This document shows positions 1-5,490 of a DNA stretch of 5,490 bases, piece after piece (the first letter of the stretch is position 1; every line of letters begins with the position of its first letter). The stretch lies in the sequence record OR702609.1; one strand, 5' to 3'. This DNA comes from Escherichia phage MG1. The notes below the pieces were generated by a model. It did not search any database. It saw only the letters and a program-made list of their open reading frames with translations, and had not been told where the DNA came from. Both the position numbers and the translations under genes were made by a program.

Positions 1-1635
1 ATGTCTGTAGAATTAGTAAAACCACTCGTCGAAGCTGCTGGCATGTCGACACTTACACAATCCCCAAACCTCCGTATCTGGAAACAGGTAAACACTCGCG
101 TAAAATTACTTGAAGAAATTCTTGCTCACTGGACAAACGGAATCCGTCGCTGCCCTGAAACTCAAGACTTCTACATGAACCCAAATTCTCAATTGGCTAC
201 TACTATTGCCTATCGTGCCCATCAAAAAGGACACAACCCAAAACTCATTCAATACCCTGACACATTTACTCTCGACGACATTATTCGCCGTAAACCAATC
301 CCTCAAACTGCCCCTAACGAATTACGCCTCTCTGATGAAATCGGTGAGGATTACCGCCTTACAGTCATCGCCATTGCTGACGAACTGCAAGAATGTTACG
401 ACGTGCTCGAACAACTTGATATTAATAACACTATAGACCACACCCCTAAAGGTAACGCCCATTGGAGTATGCTTTATGATAAACCTGTTAACACCCATTG
501 GTCACAGCTCGTATCTAAACGACCCCTTAAAGATATCCGCGCCGATTACAACTATGCAAAGGCGAAGGGTATTAAGGATGAATGCTCAAAAATGCTTGAG
601 GAATCCACCATGAAATCAAGACGTGGCTTTACCGTTCAAAGATTGATGAATGCTATGCGCCAAGCCCACACTGATGGTTGGTATGTTGTATTCGACACTC
701 TTACTCTGGCCGATGATCGCATACAGGCTTTCTATGATAATCCCAATGCTCTTCGTGACTACTTCCGTGATATTGGTCGTATGGTGCTTGCTGCCGAGGG
801 TCGCTCTGCTAATGACTCACACGCCGACTGCTATCAGTATTTTTGTGTTCCAGAGTATGGCACACAGCACGGTCGTCTACATTTCCATGCAGTGCACCTT
901 ATGCGCACACTTCCTCTGGGTTCTCGTGACCCTAACTTCGGTAAGCTGGTACGCACTAATCGCCAAATAAATAGCTTGCAAAACACTTGGCCTTACGGCT
1001 ACTCTATGCCCATCGCAGTCCGGTACTCGCAAGACGCATTCTCGCGTTCTGGTTGGCTCTGGCCTGTCGACTCAAAGGGTGAACCCCTTAAAGCTACCTC
1101 GTATATGGCTGTCGGCTTCTACGTCGCTAAATACGTCAACAAAAAATCTGATATTGACATGGCCGCAAAAGGCCTAGGGAATAAAGAATGGAACGCATCA
1201 CTCAAGACCAAAATATCTCTCCTACCAACCAAACTATTCAGAATCCGAATGTCCCGCAACTTCGGGATGAAGATGTTATCAATGGCGCACCTGACCGCCG
1301 AAACATTAATCCAACTGACCCAACTGGGCTACGACTCGACCCCGTTCAACAACGTTTTGAAGCAGAACGCCAAGAAAGAGCTGAAATCGAGGCTGGCAAA
1401 AGCATCTGTCGCGACCGTTTTGGCGGCGCAACCTGTAACAACGAATCTGCTAAAATTTATGCGCGATTTGACCCGAACAATCGGAGCGTCCAACCTGCAG
1501 AATTTTATCGCTTCAATGACTCAGAAATTAACACTCATGGATACTTCTGATGAAACCAAAAACTACCTTGCTGCTGCAGGCATTACTACTGCTTGCTTAC
1601 GAATTAAATCGAAGTGGACTGCTGGTGGAAAGTGA
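1..1635 (+). CDS. A: Replication initiation protein A (rolling-circle HUH endonuclease), 544 aa
   Basis: Long ORF from ATG at 1 to TGA at 1633-1635. Strong similarity to phiX174 protein A from about residue 120 onward. HUH motif HFHAVH at 880-897. Paired catalytic tyrosines in [10 protein letters not shown] (Tyr codons 1120-1122 and 1132-1134). Contains the 30-nt origin at 412-441. N-terminal ~100 aa diverge from phiX174. Confidence 0.93.
412..441 (+). other. Viral (+) strand origin of rolling-circle replication; protein A nick site between G418 and A419
   Basis: Exact match to the conserved 30-nt microvirus origin CAACTTGATATTAATAACACTATAGACCAC as I recall it from phiX174/G4, located inside gene A. 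Confidence 0.85.
610..1635 (+). CDS. A*: Protein A* (in-frame internal initiation within A), 341 aa
   Basis: In-frame ATG at 610 (MKSRRGF...), at the position I recall for phiX174 A*. GAGGA at 598-602, 7 nt upstream. Predicted length 341 aa equals phiX174 A*. Expression not provable from sequence. Confidence 0.6.
977..1005 (+). promoter_or_regulatory. Candidate promoter pB (inside gene A, upstream of B)
   Basis: TTGCAA at 977-982, 17-nt spacer, TACTCT at 1000-1005 (4/6 to TATAAT). Position is about 185 nt upstream of B, roughly where phiX174 pB lies. Weak hexamers. Confidence 0.25.
1188..1550 (+). CDS. B: Internal scaffolding protein B, 120 aa
   Basis: ORF in an alternative frame wholly inside A. 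ATG at 1188 with AGGGA about 9 nt upstream. Same length as phiX174 B, with conserved C-terminus ([26 protein letters not shown]). Confidence 0.9.
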
Positions 1636-1714
1636 AGAAATTCAATCTTGCGTTAAAGAACTCGAGAGGGTCTTACTTTGCGACCTTTCGGCATCAACTC
1701 GCTATACTCTCTAA
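1550..1714 (+). CDS. K: Protein K, 54 aa
   Basis: Not in the ORF track (short). ATG at 1550 overlaps the B stop (TGATG); ends TAA 1712-1714. Third frame across the A/C junction. Translation [54 protein letters not shown] resembles phiX174 K ([15 protein letters not shown]). Confidence 0.75.
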
Positions 1715-1892
1715 GGCTGATGCTCTCGACGAGGAAAAATGGCTTAACATGATGGGCGCTCTTCTTAAGGACTGGTTCCGCTACGAACAACATTTCGTAC
1801 ATGGCAAACGGTCTTTAGTTGACATATTAATCGAACGGGGGTTACTATCCCCCACACAAACAACCCGTAACAACAAAGGAAATACCAAATGA
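1632..1892 (+). CDS. C: Protein C (DNA packaging / stage III replication switch), 86 aa
   Basis: ORF similar to phiX174 C ([49 protein letters not shown]). No in-frame ATG near the 5' end. GTG at 1632 overlaps the A stop (GTGA) exactly where phiX174 has ATGA, and gives 86 aa as in phiX174. An alternative GTG at 1614 would give 92 aa. Confidence 0.8.
1819..1848 (+). promoter_or_regulatory. Candidate promoter pD (inside gene C, upstream of D)
   Basis: Consensus -35 TTGACA at 1819-1824, 18-nt spacer, -10 TACTAT at 1843-1848. Same hexamers and position as I recall for phiX174 pD. Confidence 0.55.
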
Positions 1893-2344
1893 ACTCCAAT
1901 GAATCTGCTGTAGCCTTTCAAACTGCAATCGCTTCTATCAAAATGATTCAAGCCTCATCCGTCCTCGACCTTACCGAAGACGACTTTGAATTTTTAACTG
2001 GTGACCGTGTCTGGATTGCTACCGACCGTTCTCGCGCTCGCCGTGCTGTGGAGGCCTGTGTTTATGGCACACTGGACTTTGTCGGGTATCCTCGCTTTCC
2101 TGCTCCTGTTGAGTTTATTTCTGCTGTTATCGCTTACTACGTTCATCCGGTCAACATCCAGACCGCTTGTCTCATCATGGAAGGAGCCGAATTTACTGAA
2201 AACATCGTCAATGGCGTTGAATCCCCAGTTAAGGCTTCCGAACTCTTCGCTTTCGTTCTCCGTGTCCGCGCTGGCTGTAAAGACGTCCTCGAAGGTGCCG
2301 AAGACAACATCCGCGCTAAACTCCGTGCACAAGGGATCATGTAA
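1889..2344 (+). CDS. D: External scaffolding protein D, 151 aa
   Basis: ATG at 1889 overlaps the C stop (ATGA); AAAGGA 8 nt upstream. Very high similarity to phiX174 D (VLDLTEDDF.FLT, WIATDRSRARR.VEACVYGTLDFVGYPRFPAPVEFI.AVIAYYVHPVNIQTACLIMEGAEFTEN). Confidence 0.95.
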   Translation: MNSNESAVAFQTAIASIKMIQASSVLDLTEDDFEFLTGDRVWIATDRSRARRAVEACVYGTLDFVGYPRFPAPVEFISAVIAYYVHPVNIQTACLIMEGAEFTENIVNGVESPVKASELFAFVLRVRAGCKDVLEGAEDNIRAKLRAQGIM

Positions 2345-2351
2345 TGGCTAA
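2064..2351 (+). CDS. E: Lysis protein E (MraY inhibitor family), 95 aa
   Basis: ORF in the +1 frame inside D. ATG at 2064 with GGAGG at 2050-2054. N-terminal hydrophobic helix MAHWTLSGILAFLLLLSLFLLLSL followed by a basic Ser/Pro-rich tail (RPLVSSWK...), matching phiX174 E architecture. The track ORF begins at an upstream GTG (2001), which I consider an over-extension. Confidence 0.8.
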   Translation: MAHWTLSGILAFLLLLSLFLLLSLTTFIRSTSRPLVSSWKEPNLLKTSSMALNPQLRLPNSSLSFSVSALAVKTSSKVPKTTSALNSVHKGSCNG

Positions 2352-2430
2352 AGGTAAATCTTATCGCCGCGGCTCTGCTGGCAACAAAAAAGGCTCCCGC
2401 CTCTGGTACGTTGGCGGCTCACAATTCTAA
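2344..2430 (+). CDS. J: DNA-binding protein J (small basic core protein), 28 aa
   Basis: Not in the ORF track (short). ATG at 2344 overlaps the D stop (TAATG); AAGGGA about 8 nt upstream. Translation MAKGKSYRRGSAGNKKGSRLWYVGGSQF is highly basic and ends with the conserved RLWYVGG.QF motif of phiX174 J. Confidence 0.88.
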   Translation: MAKGKSYRRGSAGNKKGSRLWYVGGSQF

Positions 2431-2438
2431 TCTCCTAT

Positions 2439-2463
2439 GTGGGACTTCGGCCCCACTCTATTT
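2439..2463 (+). terminator. J-F intergenic stem-loop with UUCG tetraloop (candidate TJ terminator)
   Basis: GTGGG (2439-2443) pairs with CCCAC (2452-2456). An inner C2445:G2450 pair closes a TTCG loop, after an A/C mismatch. Followed by TCTATTT. phiX174 has GGGGCTTCGGCCCC at the same place. Confidence 0.4.
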
Positions 2464-2474
2464 AAGGATACAAA

Positions 2475-3761
2475 ATGTCTAATGTTCAAACTTCTGCCTC
2501 TCGTGATGCAATTGATTTATCACATCTGGTCTTCAACACTGGCGCTATTGGTCGCCTTAAAGTCGCGTCATGGACTCCTGTTGTCGCTGGTGATTCTTTC
2601 CAGCTTGACGCTGTTGGTGCTTTACGCTTATCCCCTCTGCGTCGCGGCCTGGCTATTGACTCAACTGTTGATTACTTCACTTTCTACATTCCACACCGTC
2701 ATATCTATGGCGATGCATGGATTGAATTTATGAAAACTGGCGTTGCTGCCACTTCTCTTAACCCTGTAACTACTGCAGCCTATGTTGACGGCGCTTCTTA
2801 TCTTGGTGTTATTCCTTCTGCTGACAACAAGGTTCCTAAGTTCCTGCATCAAGGCTATCTCAATATTTATAATAATTACTTCAAAGCACCTTGGATGGCT
2901 GACCGTACTGAGGCAAACCCATCTAACTTAAATGATGATGATCGTCGTCATGGCTTCCGCTGCTGTCACTTAAAAAATATTTGGTCTGCGCCTCTTCCTC
3001 CTCAGACGGAAATTACCCGCGCTATGACTACTGGTGCTACTTCCATTGACATCATGGGTCTTCAAGCTGCTTACGCCCAACTTCACACTGACCAAGAACG
3101 TGACTACTTCATGCAACGTTACCGTGACGTAATCTCTTCGTTCGGTGGCAAAACTCACTATGACGCTGACAACCGTCCTCTTTTGCTTATGCGCTCTAAC
3201 TTCTGGGCTTCTGGCTATGACATTGACGGTACTGACCAAACTTCATTAGGTCAATTCTCTGGTCGCGTCCAACAAACTTTCCGCCACTCTGTTCCTCGCT
3301 TCTTCGTACCGGAACATGGCGTTATTATTACTCTTCAACTTGTACGCTTCCCACCTACCTGTACTGAGGAAACTCACTATCTCGTTGGCAAAGGAGCACT
3401 AAACTATACTGACCTCGCGGGTGACCCTACTCTTTACGGTAACTTACCTCCTCGCGAAATCGAAATGAAAACTCTCTTCCGTGGCGCTGCTGGCTCTACT
3501 GAAAAAATCAAAATTGCCGAGGGGCAATGGTATCGCTATCATCCTTCTTACGTTGATGGACAATATCACAACCTCCAAGGCTTCCCGTTCATCCCAAATG
3601 GTCCAACTGGCAACATGGAAAACCGTGTACTGATTGACCATAAAAAATATGACGAATGCTTCCAGTCACTTCAATTAACCCATTGGAATGCTCAAGCTAA
3701 ATACAATGTCACTGTATATCGACACATCCCGACTACTCGTGATAGCATCATGACTTCTTAA
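2475..3761 (+). CDS. F: Major capsid protein F, 428 aa
   Basis: ATG at 2475 with AAGGA about 8 nt upstream. Near-colinear with phiX174 F (MSN.QT, DLSHL, ALRLSPLRRGLAIDSTVD, QGYLNIYNNYFKAPWM, RTEANP, GFRCCHLKNIW, ERDYFMQRY, RDSIMTS). Confidence 0.97.
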   Translation: MSNVQTSASRDAIDLSHLVFNTGAIGRLKVASWTPVVAGDSFQLDAVGALRLSPLRRGLAIDSTVDYFTFYIPHRHIYGDAWIEFMKTGVAATSLNPVTTAAYVDGASYLGVIPSADNKVPKFLHQGYLNIYNNYFKAPWMADRTEANPSNLNDDDRRHGFRCCHLKNIWSAPLPPQTEITRAMTTGATSIDIMGLQAAYAQLHTDQERDYFMQRYRDVISSFGGKTHYDADNRPLLLMRSNFWASGYDIDGTDQTSLGQFSGRVQQTFRHSVPRFFVPEHGVIITLQLVRFPPTCTEETHYLVGKGALNYTDLAGDPTLYGNLPPREIEMKTLFRGAAGSTEKIKIAEGQWYRYHPSYVDGQYHNLQGFPFIPNGPTGNMENRVLIDHKKYDECFQSLQLTHWNAQAKYNVTVYRHIPTTRDSIMTS

Positions 3762-3773
3762 AGCCTATAACGT

Positions 3774-3810
3774 GACAGGGGGAAAAATTTTAATTTTTCG
3801 CCCCCTGTCA
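3774..3810 (+). other. F-G intergenic stem-loop (candidate TF terminator and/or complementary-strand priming site)
   Basis: Perfect 9-bp GC-rich stem: TGACAGGGG (3774-3782) with CCCCTGTCA (3802-3810). It encloses AAAAATTTTAATTTTT, itself self-complementary (AAAAA/TTTTT). The same A/T core occurs in the phiX174 F-G intergenic region. Confidence 0.55.
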
Positions 3811-3860
3811 GGTTGAACAAGCGCAAGCGCGTTAGCTGCCTAACTACAAGGACTACTCAA

Positions 3861-4385
3861 ATGTTTCAGAACTTTGTTACTAAACACAATTCTCCTCAAT
3901 TTACTACTACTATCACAAAGGCCGTCACTCCCGCCGCGTTGGCTCCTGTTATTAATACGCCAACCGCTGCGCGTGGCAATCTCTTTGTGAACCTAACTAC
4001 TACCGCCCTAACTTCTCCGGGCGGTATCTCTGCTGTTGTCGCTATTGACAACTTTTCTCGTACCGACAATCAGGTTATTTCTATTGCTGCCTCTCTTTCT
4101 ACTACTGGCAGTCTAGTACCTGTTCTTTGTCGGTTTGAATCTGCTGCTGTACCAACGGCTATTCCCGCATCTGCGGTTACTTACTATCCGTTGGACTTTA
4201 CATCATCTGCTACCGCTCTGTCCGTCAAGGACTGCGCTACTGTCTCTACTCTTTCTCGCTCTGGCAATCCTGTTTATGTAGGTATTGCCCTTATTGCGAA
4301 ATCATTTACCGCCGGCACTGTATACGGCTCTATCTCAATTAATCAGGTTGACCAAGAAATCACAACTCTGCAACCTCTCAAATAA
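3861..4385 (+). CDS. G: Major spike protein G, 174 aa
   Basis: ATG at 3861 (MFQNFVTKHNS...) aligns with the phiX174 G N-terminus (MFQTFISRHNS); AAGGA about 10 nt upstream. Conserved motifs CRFES..VPT, VKDC.TV, NPVYVG, LQPLK. The track ORF starts at an upstream TTG (3813) that I consider non-genuine. Confidence 0.9.
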   Translation: MFQNFVTKHNSPQFTTTITKAVTPAALAPVINTPTAARGNLFVNLTTTALTSPGGISAVVAIDNFSRTDNQVISIAASLSTTGSLVPVLCRFESAAVPTAIPASAVTYYPLDFTSSATALSVKDCATVSTLSRSGNPVYVGIALIAKSFTAGTVYGSISINQVDQEITTLQPLK

Positions 4386-4394
4386 GGAATCTCT

Positions 4395-5432
4395 ATGTTT
4401 GGTGCAATCGCTGGCGGCATCGCCTCTACTCTTGCTGGCGGTCTAATGTCCAAACTGATGGGCGGCAATAAACAAGCCGCCCCCTCAACTCCCGGACAAG
4501 GCCTCTTCGCTACCCCTGAAGCTACTATCTCTGCTGATAATGCAGGTATTCAATCTGTTATGCAGGGACCCAACCCGCCTGGTCCTGACCAAGCGGCTCC
4601 TTCATTTACCGAATCTGCCGTCTCCTCACTTAAGGATGCTGGCAAAGGACTCCTCGATGGTACTCTACAAGCTGGCGGCTCTGCTGTTCAACAAGCTCTT
4701 CTTAACAAAATTGGCCTCGGTGGCAAATCTGCTTCTGATAAAGGCAAGGATACTAAAGATTACCTTGCTGCTGCGTTCCCCGAGCTCAACCCGTGGGAAC
4801 GCGCTGGCGCTGGTGCTTCCTCTGCTGGTATGGTTGACGCTGGTTTTGAAAACCAAAAACAATTAACCAAGATGCAACTTGACAATCAAGTCAAAATCGC
4901 TAAGATGCAAAACGACACTCAGAAGGATATCGCTGGTATCCAGTCTGCCACATCACGCATGAATACCAAGGACTCTGTATATGCTCAAAACGAAATGCTC
5001 CAATACAACCAAAAGGAATCTATGTCACGTGTTGGCGCTATTCTCGAAAACACAAGCCTCACCAAACAGCAACAAACTTCTGAAATTATGCGGCAAATGC
5101 TTACTCAGGCTCAAACCTCAGGGCAACACTTTACTAACTCTCAAATCCAAGAACTTACTCGAAAAGTCGGTGCTGATATTGATGCTGTTCGTGCTAACAC
5201 TGAACGCACCCATGTAGAAACTGACCGCTCAAAACAGGAAGTCCAAAACTCACGTTACGCATCATCACAGGTCGGTAAAACCGCCAAGGACGTATCAAAT
5301 GTCATTAGTGACGCATCTTCTGGTATTGTTGATTATTTTCGCGGCGTTGATAAAGCTGTGGCTGACACTTGGAACAATTATTGGAAAGATGGTAAAGCCG
5401 ACGGAGTAGGCTCCAACATGTCTCGCAAATAG
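4395..5432 (+). CDS. H: DNA pilot (minor spike) protein H, 345 aa
   Basis: ATG at 4395 with TAAGGA overlapping the G stop. Gly-rich hydrophobic N-terminus [16 protein letters not shown] as in phiX174 H. Long conserved blocks ([83 protein letters not shown]). Confidence 0.95.
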
Positions 5433-5433
5433 C

Positions 5434-5463
5434 TTGACAATCACATCATAAATCCTATCTAAT
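5434..5463 (+). promoter_or_regulatory. Candidate promoter pA (H-A intergenic region)
   Basis: Consensus -35 TTGACA at 5434-5439, immediately after the H stop. Best -10 is TCTAAT at 5458-5463 (5/6) with an 18-nt spacer. phiX174 also has TTGACA just after H. Confidence 0.5.
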
Positions 5464-5485
5464 AGCCTCCATTAACACGGAGGCT
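5464..5485 (+). terminator. H-A intergenic stem-loop (TH-like hairpin carrying the gene A Shine-Dalgarno sequence)
   Basis: AGCCTCC (5464-5470) pairs with GGAGGCT (5479-5485); 8-nt loop ATTAACAC. GGAGG lies in the 3' arm and, if the molecule is circular, 8 nt upstream of the A ATG at 1. Only a 3-nt T run follows, so terminator activity is uncertain. Confidence 0.4.
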
Positions 5486-5490
5486 TTAAC

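Follow-up and report, generated by a model that had tools for sequence, protein, structure and literature searches.

Does the 5,490-nucleotide (nt) stretch of DNA in sequence record OR702609.1, from Escherichia phage MG1, hold one complete microvirus genome, and to which lineage of phages does that genome belong? The whole of this stretch is called the window here. An initial annotation, made from the letters of the window without database searches, had proposed an entire circular microvirus genome written out from gene A and closer to phage G4 than to phiX174 proper. The comparisons reported below support, with a probability of about 95%, the reading of the window as a single full copy of a circular, single-stranded DNA genome that belongs to a Bullavirinae coliphage of the Lilleput/SECphi17 cluster, linearised from the first base of gene A.

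Genome Unit and Circle Closure

Over its whole length, the window is co-linear with Escherichia phage Lilleput (MK629525). Both sequences are 5490 nt long and share their first base, and they are 96.4% identical, with 196 substitutions and no insertions or deletions. Five further isolates match the window at 93.5–96% and are co-linear with it over the full length, namely Lilledu (96.0%), lillemer (95.8–95.9%), Lilleto (95.5%), Lilleen (within 95.5–96%) and SECphi17 (93.5%). Of all the relatives found, Logan contigs from SRR27294584 and SRR27294582 are the nearest, at 97.6%. Look-ups of the exact A and F proteins returned no entry, and none of the records found is identical to the window. Similarity to the Bullavirinae is extensive, with 569 records matched. 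All eleven genes of the phiX174 type were found in the canonical order, by the list of open reading frames, by homology-guided refinement and by Pfam, and all features described here lie on the plus (+) strand of the window. Gene A starts at base 1, and the last 58 nt (5433–5490) form the H-A spacer, since the stop codon of H occupies 5430–5432, as had been read from the letters alone.

Members of the Bullavirinae have circular single-stranded DNA, packaged in a T=1 virion. Of these traits, circularity was judged from the continuity of the junction between position 5490 and position 1 and from terminal-overlap assemblies of relatives. Terminal redundancy was looked for in the window and none was found. 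More than eight independent records or assemblies that are cut at other points read through the 5490→1 junction without a break. A 600-nt probe across it is uninterrupted in lillemer (97.3%), SECphi17 (89.3%) and the circular record of phage PJNS002 (88.5%), and the junction is also unbroken in metagenome and Logan contigs cut elsewhere. The circular records of ID2 and G4 are cut directly after H and so bridge the other side of the H-A spacer. In addition, six independent assemblies of relatives carry terminal direct repeats that are assembler k-mer overlaps (119 nt, 55 nt and four of 30 nt). The circles implied by these assemblies measure 5483–5484 nt, with a different cut point in each, and five of the six read directly through the 5490→1 junction of the window. 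Together with the end-to-end match to Lilleput, this continuity bears out the proposal of a whole circular genome that starts at gene A.

Joining the ends recreates a conserved ribosome-binding site and start codon, contiguous in relatives cut elsewhere, as the initial annotation had expected. The GGAGG upstream of the A ATG is indeed present, at 5479–5483, and is separated from it by seven bases (CTTTAAC), not by the eight first counted. With the ends joined, the first in-frame stop codon 5′ of base 1 is the TAA at 5473–5475, because of which the ATG at base 1 is the first possible start of A.

Lineage and Modular Ancestry

Olsen et al. (2020; PMC7552041) have reported the isolation of five “Lille” phages from Danish wastewater on E. 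coli MG1655. These phages cluster with SECphi17 and have 59–68% nucleotide similarity (59.1–67.9%, by a BLAST measure) to recognised Gequatrovirus species. They have almost no gpG similarity to Gequatrovirus and were filed as gequatroviruses all the same, by synteny (PMC7552041). The cluster comprises Lilleput, Lilledu, lillemer, Lilleto, Lilleen and SECphi17 together with Logan and ENA assemblies, and the NCBI taxonomy lists it among unclassified Bullavirinae. Under the species criterion of at least 95% genome-wide nucleotide identity, as applied in PMC7552041, the window falls with Lilleput (96.4%), and Lilledu, lillemer and Lilleto also exceed 95%; SECphi17 lies below, at 93.5%. The Lilleput/SECphi17 lineage is already known, and the window represents a new isolate from a species-level cluster that has been described before. 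The genome itself adds little beyond this described cluster of wastewater coliphages.

Rotated, gapped global alignment gave genome identities to the window of 96.4% for Lilleput, 93.5% for SECphi17, 78.5% for PJNS002, 73.0% for ID2, 71.6% for G4, 64.3% for phiX174 and 47.4% for alpha3. The general ICTV guideline for a genus is about 70% or more genome-wide nucleotide identity. By global alignment the window reaches 73.0% with ID2 and 71.6% with G4, as against the 59.1–67.9% of the BLAST measure for the cluster (PMC7552041).

Identities of single proteins to ID2, G4, phiX174 and alpha3 are, in that order, 83%, 83%, 66% and 40% for A (99% to Lilleput); 84%, 87%, 80% and 70% for D; 73%, 71%, 68% and 55% for H; 68%, 66%, 74% and 71% for F; and 41%, 42%, 39% and 40% for G. 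Per-gene trees were built by neighbour joining with 200 bootstraps. In the trees of A, D and H, the lineage of the window groups with G4 and ID2 as an outside sister (support of 100%, 84% and 64%, respectively), and a clade of G4 and ID2 that excludes the window has support of 96% (A), 70% (D) and 100% (H). The A tree also splits the alpha3-like phages and phiX174 from all others with 100% support. In the F tree, a split with 100% support puts the window, PJNS002, phiX174 and alpha3 apart from the G4 clade. In the G tree, the Lilleput/SECphi17 cluster stands on its own long branch. Judged by these trees, the genome is modular, with A, D and H sister to the G4/ID2 clade, an F of non-G4 type and a private G. 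Such clean modular ancestry within the Bullavirinae is relevant to the question of whether Gequatrovirus should include the cluster.

The proposal of a lineage like G4 rather than phiX174 proper is, on these identities, correct as a summary: it stands genome-wide and for A, D and H. It does not extend to the coat and spike genes, since F falls outside the G4 clade and G is roughly equidistant from all clades. The sizes that had been offered as a pointer to G4 are approximate. The window has 5490 nt, a J of 28 amino acids (aa) and an A of 544 aa; the corresponding values are 5534 nt, 25 aa and 554 aa in G4 and 5486 nt, 26 aa and 553 aa in ID2.

Two other cases of discordant gene trees were seen among the relatives. 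The G of PJNS002 groups with those of ID2 and phiX174 (98%) and not with its nearest whole-genome relatives, and two alpha3-like genomes (L016 and L022) have an F that groups with the G4 clade (support of 100%).

Predicted Origins of Replication

The viral (+) strand origin lies within gene A at 412–441, where CAACTTG/ATATTAATAACACTATAGACCAC is an exact match over 30 of 30 nt to phiX174 4299–4328. The same 30 nt are present in every relative examined. The rep_origin annotated at 4306 in phiX174 maps to position 419 of the window, which places the nick between 418 and 419. By homology with phiX174, protein A would nick the origin at 418/419 and drive rolling-circle synthesis.

The complementary-strand origin, together with the terminator TF, is predicted in the 99-nt F-G spacer (3762–3860) by homology to ID2 and phiX174. 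A long hairpin at 3769–3814 with the AAAAATTTTAATTTTT loop region is followed by the GGTTGAACAAGCGCAAGCGCGTTAGCTGCC core at 3811–3840. The spacer folds with –20.7 kcal/mol as DNA (z = –4.8), and the z-score as RNA is –4.5. About 87 nt across the spacer (3759–3845) are identical to ID2, in which the adjoining F and G are 65% and 48% identical to those of the window at the nucleotide level; this suggests either that the block has been exchanged or that it is very strongly constrained. The spacer is also homologous to phiX174 2301–2371, with 77–79% identity, and the two share the AAAAATTTTAATTTTT block at 16 of 16 positions and a GGTTGA-CAAGCG-AAGCGCG-TAG core. Where the hairpin stems of the window, PJNS002 and phiX174 differ, pairing is maintained. 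Spacers of this type occur also in the subgroup of ID2, FL76 and ID18 and in phiX174-like phages, and not in G4-type or ID11-type genomes. In phiX174, we take the PriA (n′) site to lie in the F-G spacer. The primosome assembly site of phiX174 has been described as a hairpin recognised by PriA (PMC5778457). The lineage of the window most likely uses a PriA-dependent route of the phiX174 type for its complementary strand, as the homology of the spacer indicates. An incoming single strand would become duplex from the F-G spacer through presumed PriA-dependent assembly of a primosome, and not from a primase-only origin as in G4.

In G4, the complementary strand is started by primase and SSB alone at three stem-loops in the F-G spacer (PMC6783573, PMC13037366). 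Hairpin I of that origin carries GCGAAAGC (GCGTTAGC in St-1 and alpha3) in a GGC...GCC stem, with a CTG start on its 3′ side (PMC6783573, PMC13037366). These hallmarks were seen in the F-G spacer of G4 and in the G-H spacer of alpha3. Neither spacer was matched in the circularised window (best matches of 8–13 nt, with expectation values above 0.5), and the same search detected the homology between G4 and alpha3 that served as its control (expectation value of 1.5e-4). An isolated GCGTTAGCTGCC is present at 3829–3840.

It is on this evidence that the window has to be weighed as a strain of G4 proper, or as a typical Gequatrovirus with a DnaG primase-only origin of three hairpins in the F-G spacer. 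Gequatrovirus is the nearest named genus genome-wide, G4 and ID2 are the phages closest in A, B, K, C, D and H, and the cluster was filed under Gequatrovirus by Olsen et al. (PMC7552041). The identity of the genome to G4 is only 71.6%, however, F stands apart from the G4 clade with 100% bootstrap support, G is 42% identical, and NCBI has left the cluster unclassified. Hairpin I with GGCGAAAGCC and the start site CCCTACTGC are also absent across the circularised window, in a search whose control of G4 against alpha3 detects them. A G4 strain is thus very unlikely, and the window is better read as a member of the Lilleput/SECphi17 cluster.

A side observation concerns the same spacer. The “mini-hairpin” motif GCGNNAGC has only two matches genome-wide, GCGCAAGC and GCGTTAGC, which adjoin each other at 3821–3836. 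At the homologous spot, phiX174 has GCGAAGC, and the origins of St-1 and alpha3 have been reported to carry the GCGTTAGC variant.

Alternatives Considered: Prophage, Mis-assembly and Contamination

Microviridae prophages have been described in other subfamilies (PMC3091885, PMC9753089), so the window might come from the interior of a larger replicon, for instance from an integrated microvirus prophage or as a segment of a plasmid, and begin at gene A by chance. Megablast against 5,426 complete E. coli genomes gave no match to the window, and a 24-mer across the junction and a lineage-specific 24-mer were both absent from 185,579 GTDB genomes. The junction 24-mer also had no match in the metagenome collection of the Joint Genome Institute; the lineage-specific one matched a single metagenome contig and nothing in IMG/VR. 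Look-up of the exact D protein returned ten contigs, none of them within a larger replicon, and all nine long ones stand alone at 5.3–5.6 kilobases (kb). The window holds the genes of one genome unit and no more, and a conserved spacer is formed when its ends are joined. The larger replicon is effectively refuted.

The mixed ancestry, with A, D and H like those of G4, an F of non-G4 type and a spacer of the phiX174/ID2 type, could in principle reflect chimeric mis-assembly of two co-occurring microviruses. Small, similar genomes within one sample can be mis-joined, and records of the cluster do show artefacts, such as the 55-nt terminal repeat of SECphi17 and a 155-nt gap in Lilleen. The arrangement is nevertheless found again in six isolates that two laboratories have cultured, in PJNS002 and in at least six independent metagenome or SRA assemblies made with different assemblers, and every reading frame is intact, which makes a chimera scarcely credible. 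A phiX174 spike-in or laboratory contaminant was ruled out, the identity to phiX174 being only 64%.

Several points weigh against the reading of the window as a complete circular genome with the place and signals given here. The topology of the window itself is deduced from its relatives. Placement in Gequatrovirus is borderline. The functions of promoters, terminators and origins are all assigned by homology; among them, the presumed PriA site depends on about 77% identity to phiX174 over 70 nt and on the presumed position of the n′ site. Finally, the –10 element of promoter pA (TCTAAT) is weak, has no A at position 2 and failed the criteria of the promoter scanner.

Lysis Protein E without Pro21

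Gene E (2064–2351, 95 aa) lies in the +1 frame inside D and was identified as a homologous open reading frame and by alignment to E chains in the PDB. Its ATG at 2064 is preceded by GGAGG, and residues 1–18 are almost identical to those of G4 E. Residues 19–26 (nt 2118–2141) read FLLLSLTT, where LLPSLLIM is found elsewhere, so that the context SLLLPSLLIM has become SLFLLLSLTT. Leu stands at position 21, and the earliest proline is found at residue 34. The protein aligns without gaps to the E chains of PDB 8g01 and 8g02, which are MraY-E-SlyD structures (expectation value of 1e-9), and because of this gap-free alignment position 21 is truly Leu. The C-terminal Pfam model Microvir_lysis scored 18.8 bits on E, under its 25-bit cutoff.

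The FLLLSLTT segment runs through the whole lineage: it is common to the window, Lilleput, lillemer, SECphi17, PJNS002, a metagenome contig and Logan and ENA contigs. Outside the lineage, Pro21 was present in 20 of 20 intact E frames examined (phiX174, G4, ID2, alpha3 and St-1 with 15 IMG/VR genomes, from three genera), and LLPSLLIM was present in 19 of them. One ID11-type genome has an E with F19 and T26 and yet retains Pro21. In a further IMG/VR contig, L011 (IMGVR_UViG_2534682327_000003, 5883 nt), E is truncated after six residues (MVRWTL*). The contig is probably derived from phiX174, and we take its truncated E to resemble the laboratory am3 amber allele.

Pro21 has been studied in related E proteins. 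PMC11126076 cites Witte (1997) for the requirement of Pro21 in the function of phiX174 E, and P21A has been reported to abolish lysis by ID52-E (PMC11126076). In the cryo-electron microscopy (cryo-EM) complex, the E helix is bent at the conserved transmembrane proline (PMC11812184).

The six changes in E (L19F, P21L, S22L, L23S, I25T and M26T) all arise through third-codon positions of D. Five of the six leave the D protein unaltered, and the other goes with one replacement in it, of Ala by Ser. Counts of changes at D-synonymous sites were compared between the block that encodes the E helix and the flanks of D. Within the lineage, between the window and PJNS002, 4 of 30 sites changed in the block and 41 of 102 in the flanks (Fisher p = 0.008). 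Between ID2 and phiX174, both with a canonical E, the counts were 3 of 30 and 42 of 98 (p = 0.0009). Across the switch, between the window and ID2, they were 10 of 29 and 48 of 99 (p = 0.21). These counts are consistent with rapid change of the block on a single branch and a later return to purifying selection. Because of that renewed selection, the rewritten helix is probably functional.

The E of the window carries His3 and Phe19. We take L19F to be a slyD-bypass substitution. The same standing is given to R3H in a table of PMC3324380. A tentative and on balance doubtful extension would be that the E of this lineage has dispensed with Pro21. With the new segment again under purifying selection and with plaques formed by these phages, E would then probably still kill the cell, either by acting on MraY through an unkinked helix or by way of another target. 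E is annotated in none of the GenBank records of the lineage examined, and for this reason the Pro-less variant has probably gone unnoticed. The E protein is known as a “protein antibiotic” against MraY, and what is at stake is how strict the requirement for the kink is. A natural E that is without Pro21 and yet constrained offers a ready-made test of whether inhibition of MraY depends on the kinked helix of the cryo-EM complexes.

Gene Content

Gene A (1–1635) encodes the rolling-circle replication initiator of 544 aa (Pfam Phage_GPA, 202 bits), with the HUH motif HFHAVH at residues 294–299 and the twin-tyrosine motif YVAKYVNK at residues 374–381. With the 30-nt origin inside A, these features are those of a Bullavirinae initiator. 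A* is read from an in-frame internal start in A (610–1635); the annotated A* Met of ID2 aligns with A residue 204, and the ATG at 610 is preceded by GAGGAATCCACC, which contains its own GAGG. Gene B (1188–1550), in another frame within A, encodes the internal scaffolding protein of 120 aa (Phage_B, 148 bits), which is 65–66% identical to those of ID2 and G4. Gene K (1550–1714, 54 aa; Protein_K, 60 bits) has a start that overlaps the stop of B (TGATG). Gene C (1632–1892, 86 aa; Phage_C, 134 bits) is annotated at identical coordinates in Lilleput. It starts with GTG (1632–1634) in a GTGA overlap with the A stop, where ID2, G4 and phiX174 have ATG (ATGA).

Gene D (1889–2344) encodes the external scaffolding protein of 151 aa (gpD, 272 bits), which is 100% identical to gpD of Lilleput. 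Gene J (2344–2430) encodes the DNA-packaging protein of 28 aa (Microvir_J, 36 bits), with the conserved C-terminus RLWYVGGSQF. Gene F (2475–3761) encodes the major capsid protein of 428 aa (Phage_F, 501 bits). Gene G (3861–4385) encodes the major spike protein of 174 aa (Phage_G, 104 bits); the mechanical open reading frame begins with TTG at 3813, and the homologous start is the ATG at 3861. Gene H (4395–5432) encodes the pilot or minor spike protein of 345 aa (Microvir_H, 472 bits). Nine of ten proteins exceeded the Pfam gathering cutoffs, the exception being the C-terminal model of E. By homology with phiX174, B and D would scaffold a procapsid of F, G and H, J would pack the DNA, and E would lyse the cell.

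The start/stop overlaps are canonical (B/K TGATG, C/D ATGA, D/J TAATG). A genome of about 5.4–6.1 kb with eleven genes on one strand, in the canonical order and with these overlaps, is the architecture of the Bullavirinae, and the window has it. The D and G proteins are markers that separate the Bullavirinae from the Gokushovirinae, and both are present (gpD, 272 bits; Phage_G, 104 bits). An Rfam search at gathering thresholds found no known RNA family in the window.

Predicted Promoters and Terminators

By homology with phiX174, pA, pB and pD would drive clockwise transcription, and hairpins behind J, F and H would serve as leaky terminators. The pB promoter (976–1012) was assigned by homology and has TTGCAA, an 18-nt spacer and TACTCT, with a predicted start near 1012. 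The transcription start annotated at 4899 in phiX174 maps to 1012, in a block conserved across all clades. The putative pD promoter (1819–1848), with TTGACA, an 18-nt spacer and TACTAT, is the best site in the promoter scan (10 of 12 positions), and conservation of the block upstream of D extends to all clades. The J-F spacer holds a hairpin with a T-rich tail at 2439–2456, which received a terminator-like call and is the terminator TJ by homology. ID2, G4 and phiX174 have homologues of this hairpin, and that of G4 shows compensatory changes; by itself the fold does not reach significance (z = –1.05).

The 58-nt H-A spacer combines pA with a hairpin, an architecture conserved in all three clades. 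The TTGACA that had been singled out in it as promoter-like is present, at 5434–5439, and is followed by an 18-nt spacer, TCTAAT at 5458–5463 and a predicted start near 5471. The consensus scanner left pA uncalled because its best –10 has no A at position 2, and the status of the promoter rests on homology to pA of phiX174, whose annotated start at 3962 maps to 5471, just past the 5′ arm of the hairpin. The hairpin itself (AGCCTCC-N8-GGAGGCT, 5464–5485) has 7 base pairs and –12.6 kcal/mol (z = –5.1), and 0 of 200 shuffled sequences folded as well. Its 3′ arm holds the Shine-Dalgarno GGAGG of gene A at 5479–5483. The GCCTCC...GGAGGC hairpin is conserved, and pA of phiX174 starts directly after its 5′ arm.

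The hairpin probably has two roles, as its position suggests. On upstream transcripts, it would act with the T-run as the leaky terminator TH. Transcripts from pA would start inside the hairpin, so that GGAGG would stay free of pairing and serve gene A as its ribosome-binding site. The hairpin could alternatively stabilise, rather than terminate, upstream transcripts.

A second perfect TTGACA is found inside H, with a 16-nt spacer and TAAGAT (4878–4906; 10 of 12 positions). It lies in a 19-nt direct repeat (84%) of the –35 region of pA (5433–5451), 555 nt upstream. Promoter-like sites are not enriched in the window, with 10 found as against 6.7 ± 2.7 in shuffled sequence, and the site inside H may be due to chance.

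Comparison with Known Phages

The public records of the cluster are badly under-annotated, with 0–7 of 11 genes, and a complete map of genes and signals is now given. The Lilleput record annotates 6 of 11 genes, and the Lilleput, lillemer and PJNS002 records hold just 6 or 7 of 11, with A*, B, K, E and J missing. The lillemer record gives the reverse complement with its cut point within F, and all its genes are labelled hypothetical. The SECphi17 record (LT960607.1) is unannotated, and its 55-nt terminal direct repeat is an assembly overlap, so that the true length is 5483 and not 5538 nt. In the Lilleen record (MK629526.1), 155 nt that correspond to window 3746–3900 are absent, and with them the last part of F, the entire F-G spacer and the first part of G. 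The calls for F and G overlap in this record, and the gap is probably an assembly collapse and not a viable deletion.

Lilleput has D and J proteins and an H-A spacer identical to those of the window and the same Pro-less E. It differs in K (87% identical), in B (93%) and in G and E (94% each). The Salmonella phage PJNS002 (PQ479935) is the next-closest relative outside the cluster, at 78.5% by global alignment. It groups weakly with the cluster in A, D and F (57–64% bootstrap) and well in H (94%). The Pro-less E segment is common to both, whereas the E of PJNS002 keeps Pro29 and its F-G hairpin stem has compensatory changes.

ID2 (Gequatrovirus talmos) and G4 (Gequatrovirus G4) have the same order of eleven genes. 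The A of the window is 10 aa shorter than theirs at the N-terminus, and their E keeps Pro21, unlike that of the window. G4 differs further in the primase-type origin of its F-G spacer, none being found in that of the window. With phiX174 (Sinsheimervirus), the window shares the identical 30-nt origin, the gene set and the start/stop overlaps, homologous pA/hairpin, pB and pD blocks, and the AAAAATTTTAATTTTT loop and GGTTGAcCAAGCGAAGCGCGGTAG core of the F-G spacer. Its F is slightly closer to that of phiX174 (74%) than to that of G4 (66%). In contrast, the A of the window is 31 aa longer than that of phiX174, with an N-terminal part (window 1–450) that is barely alignable, and its J has 28 aa as compared with 38 aa in phiX174.

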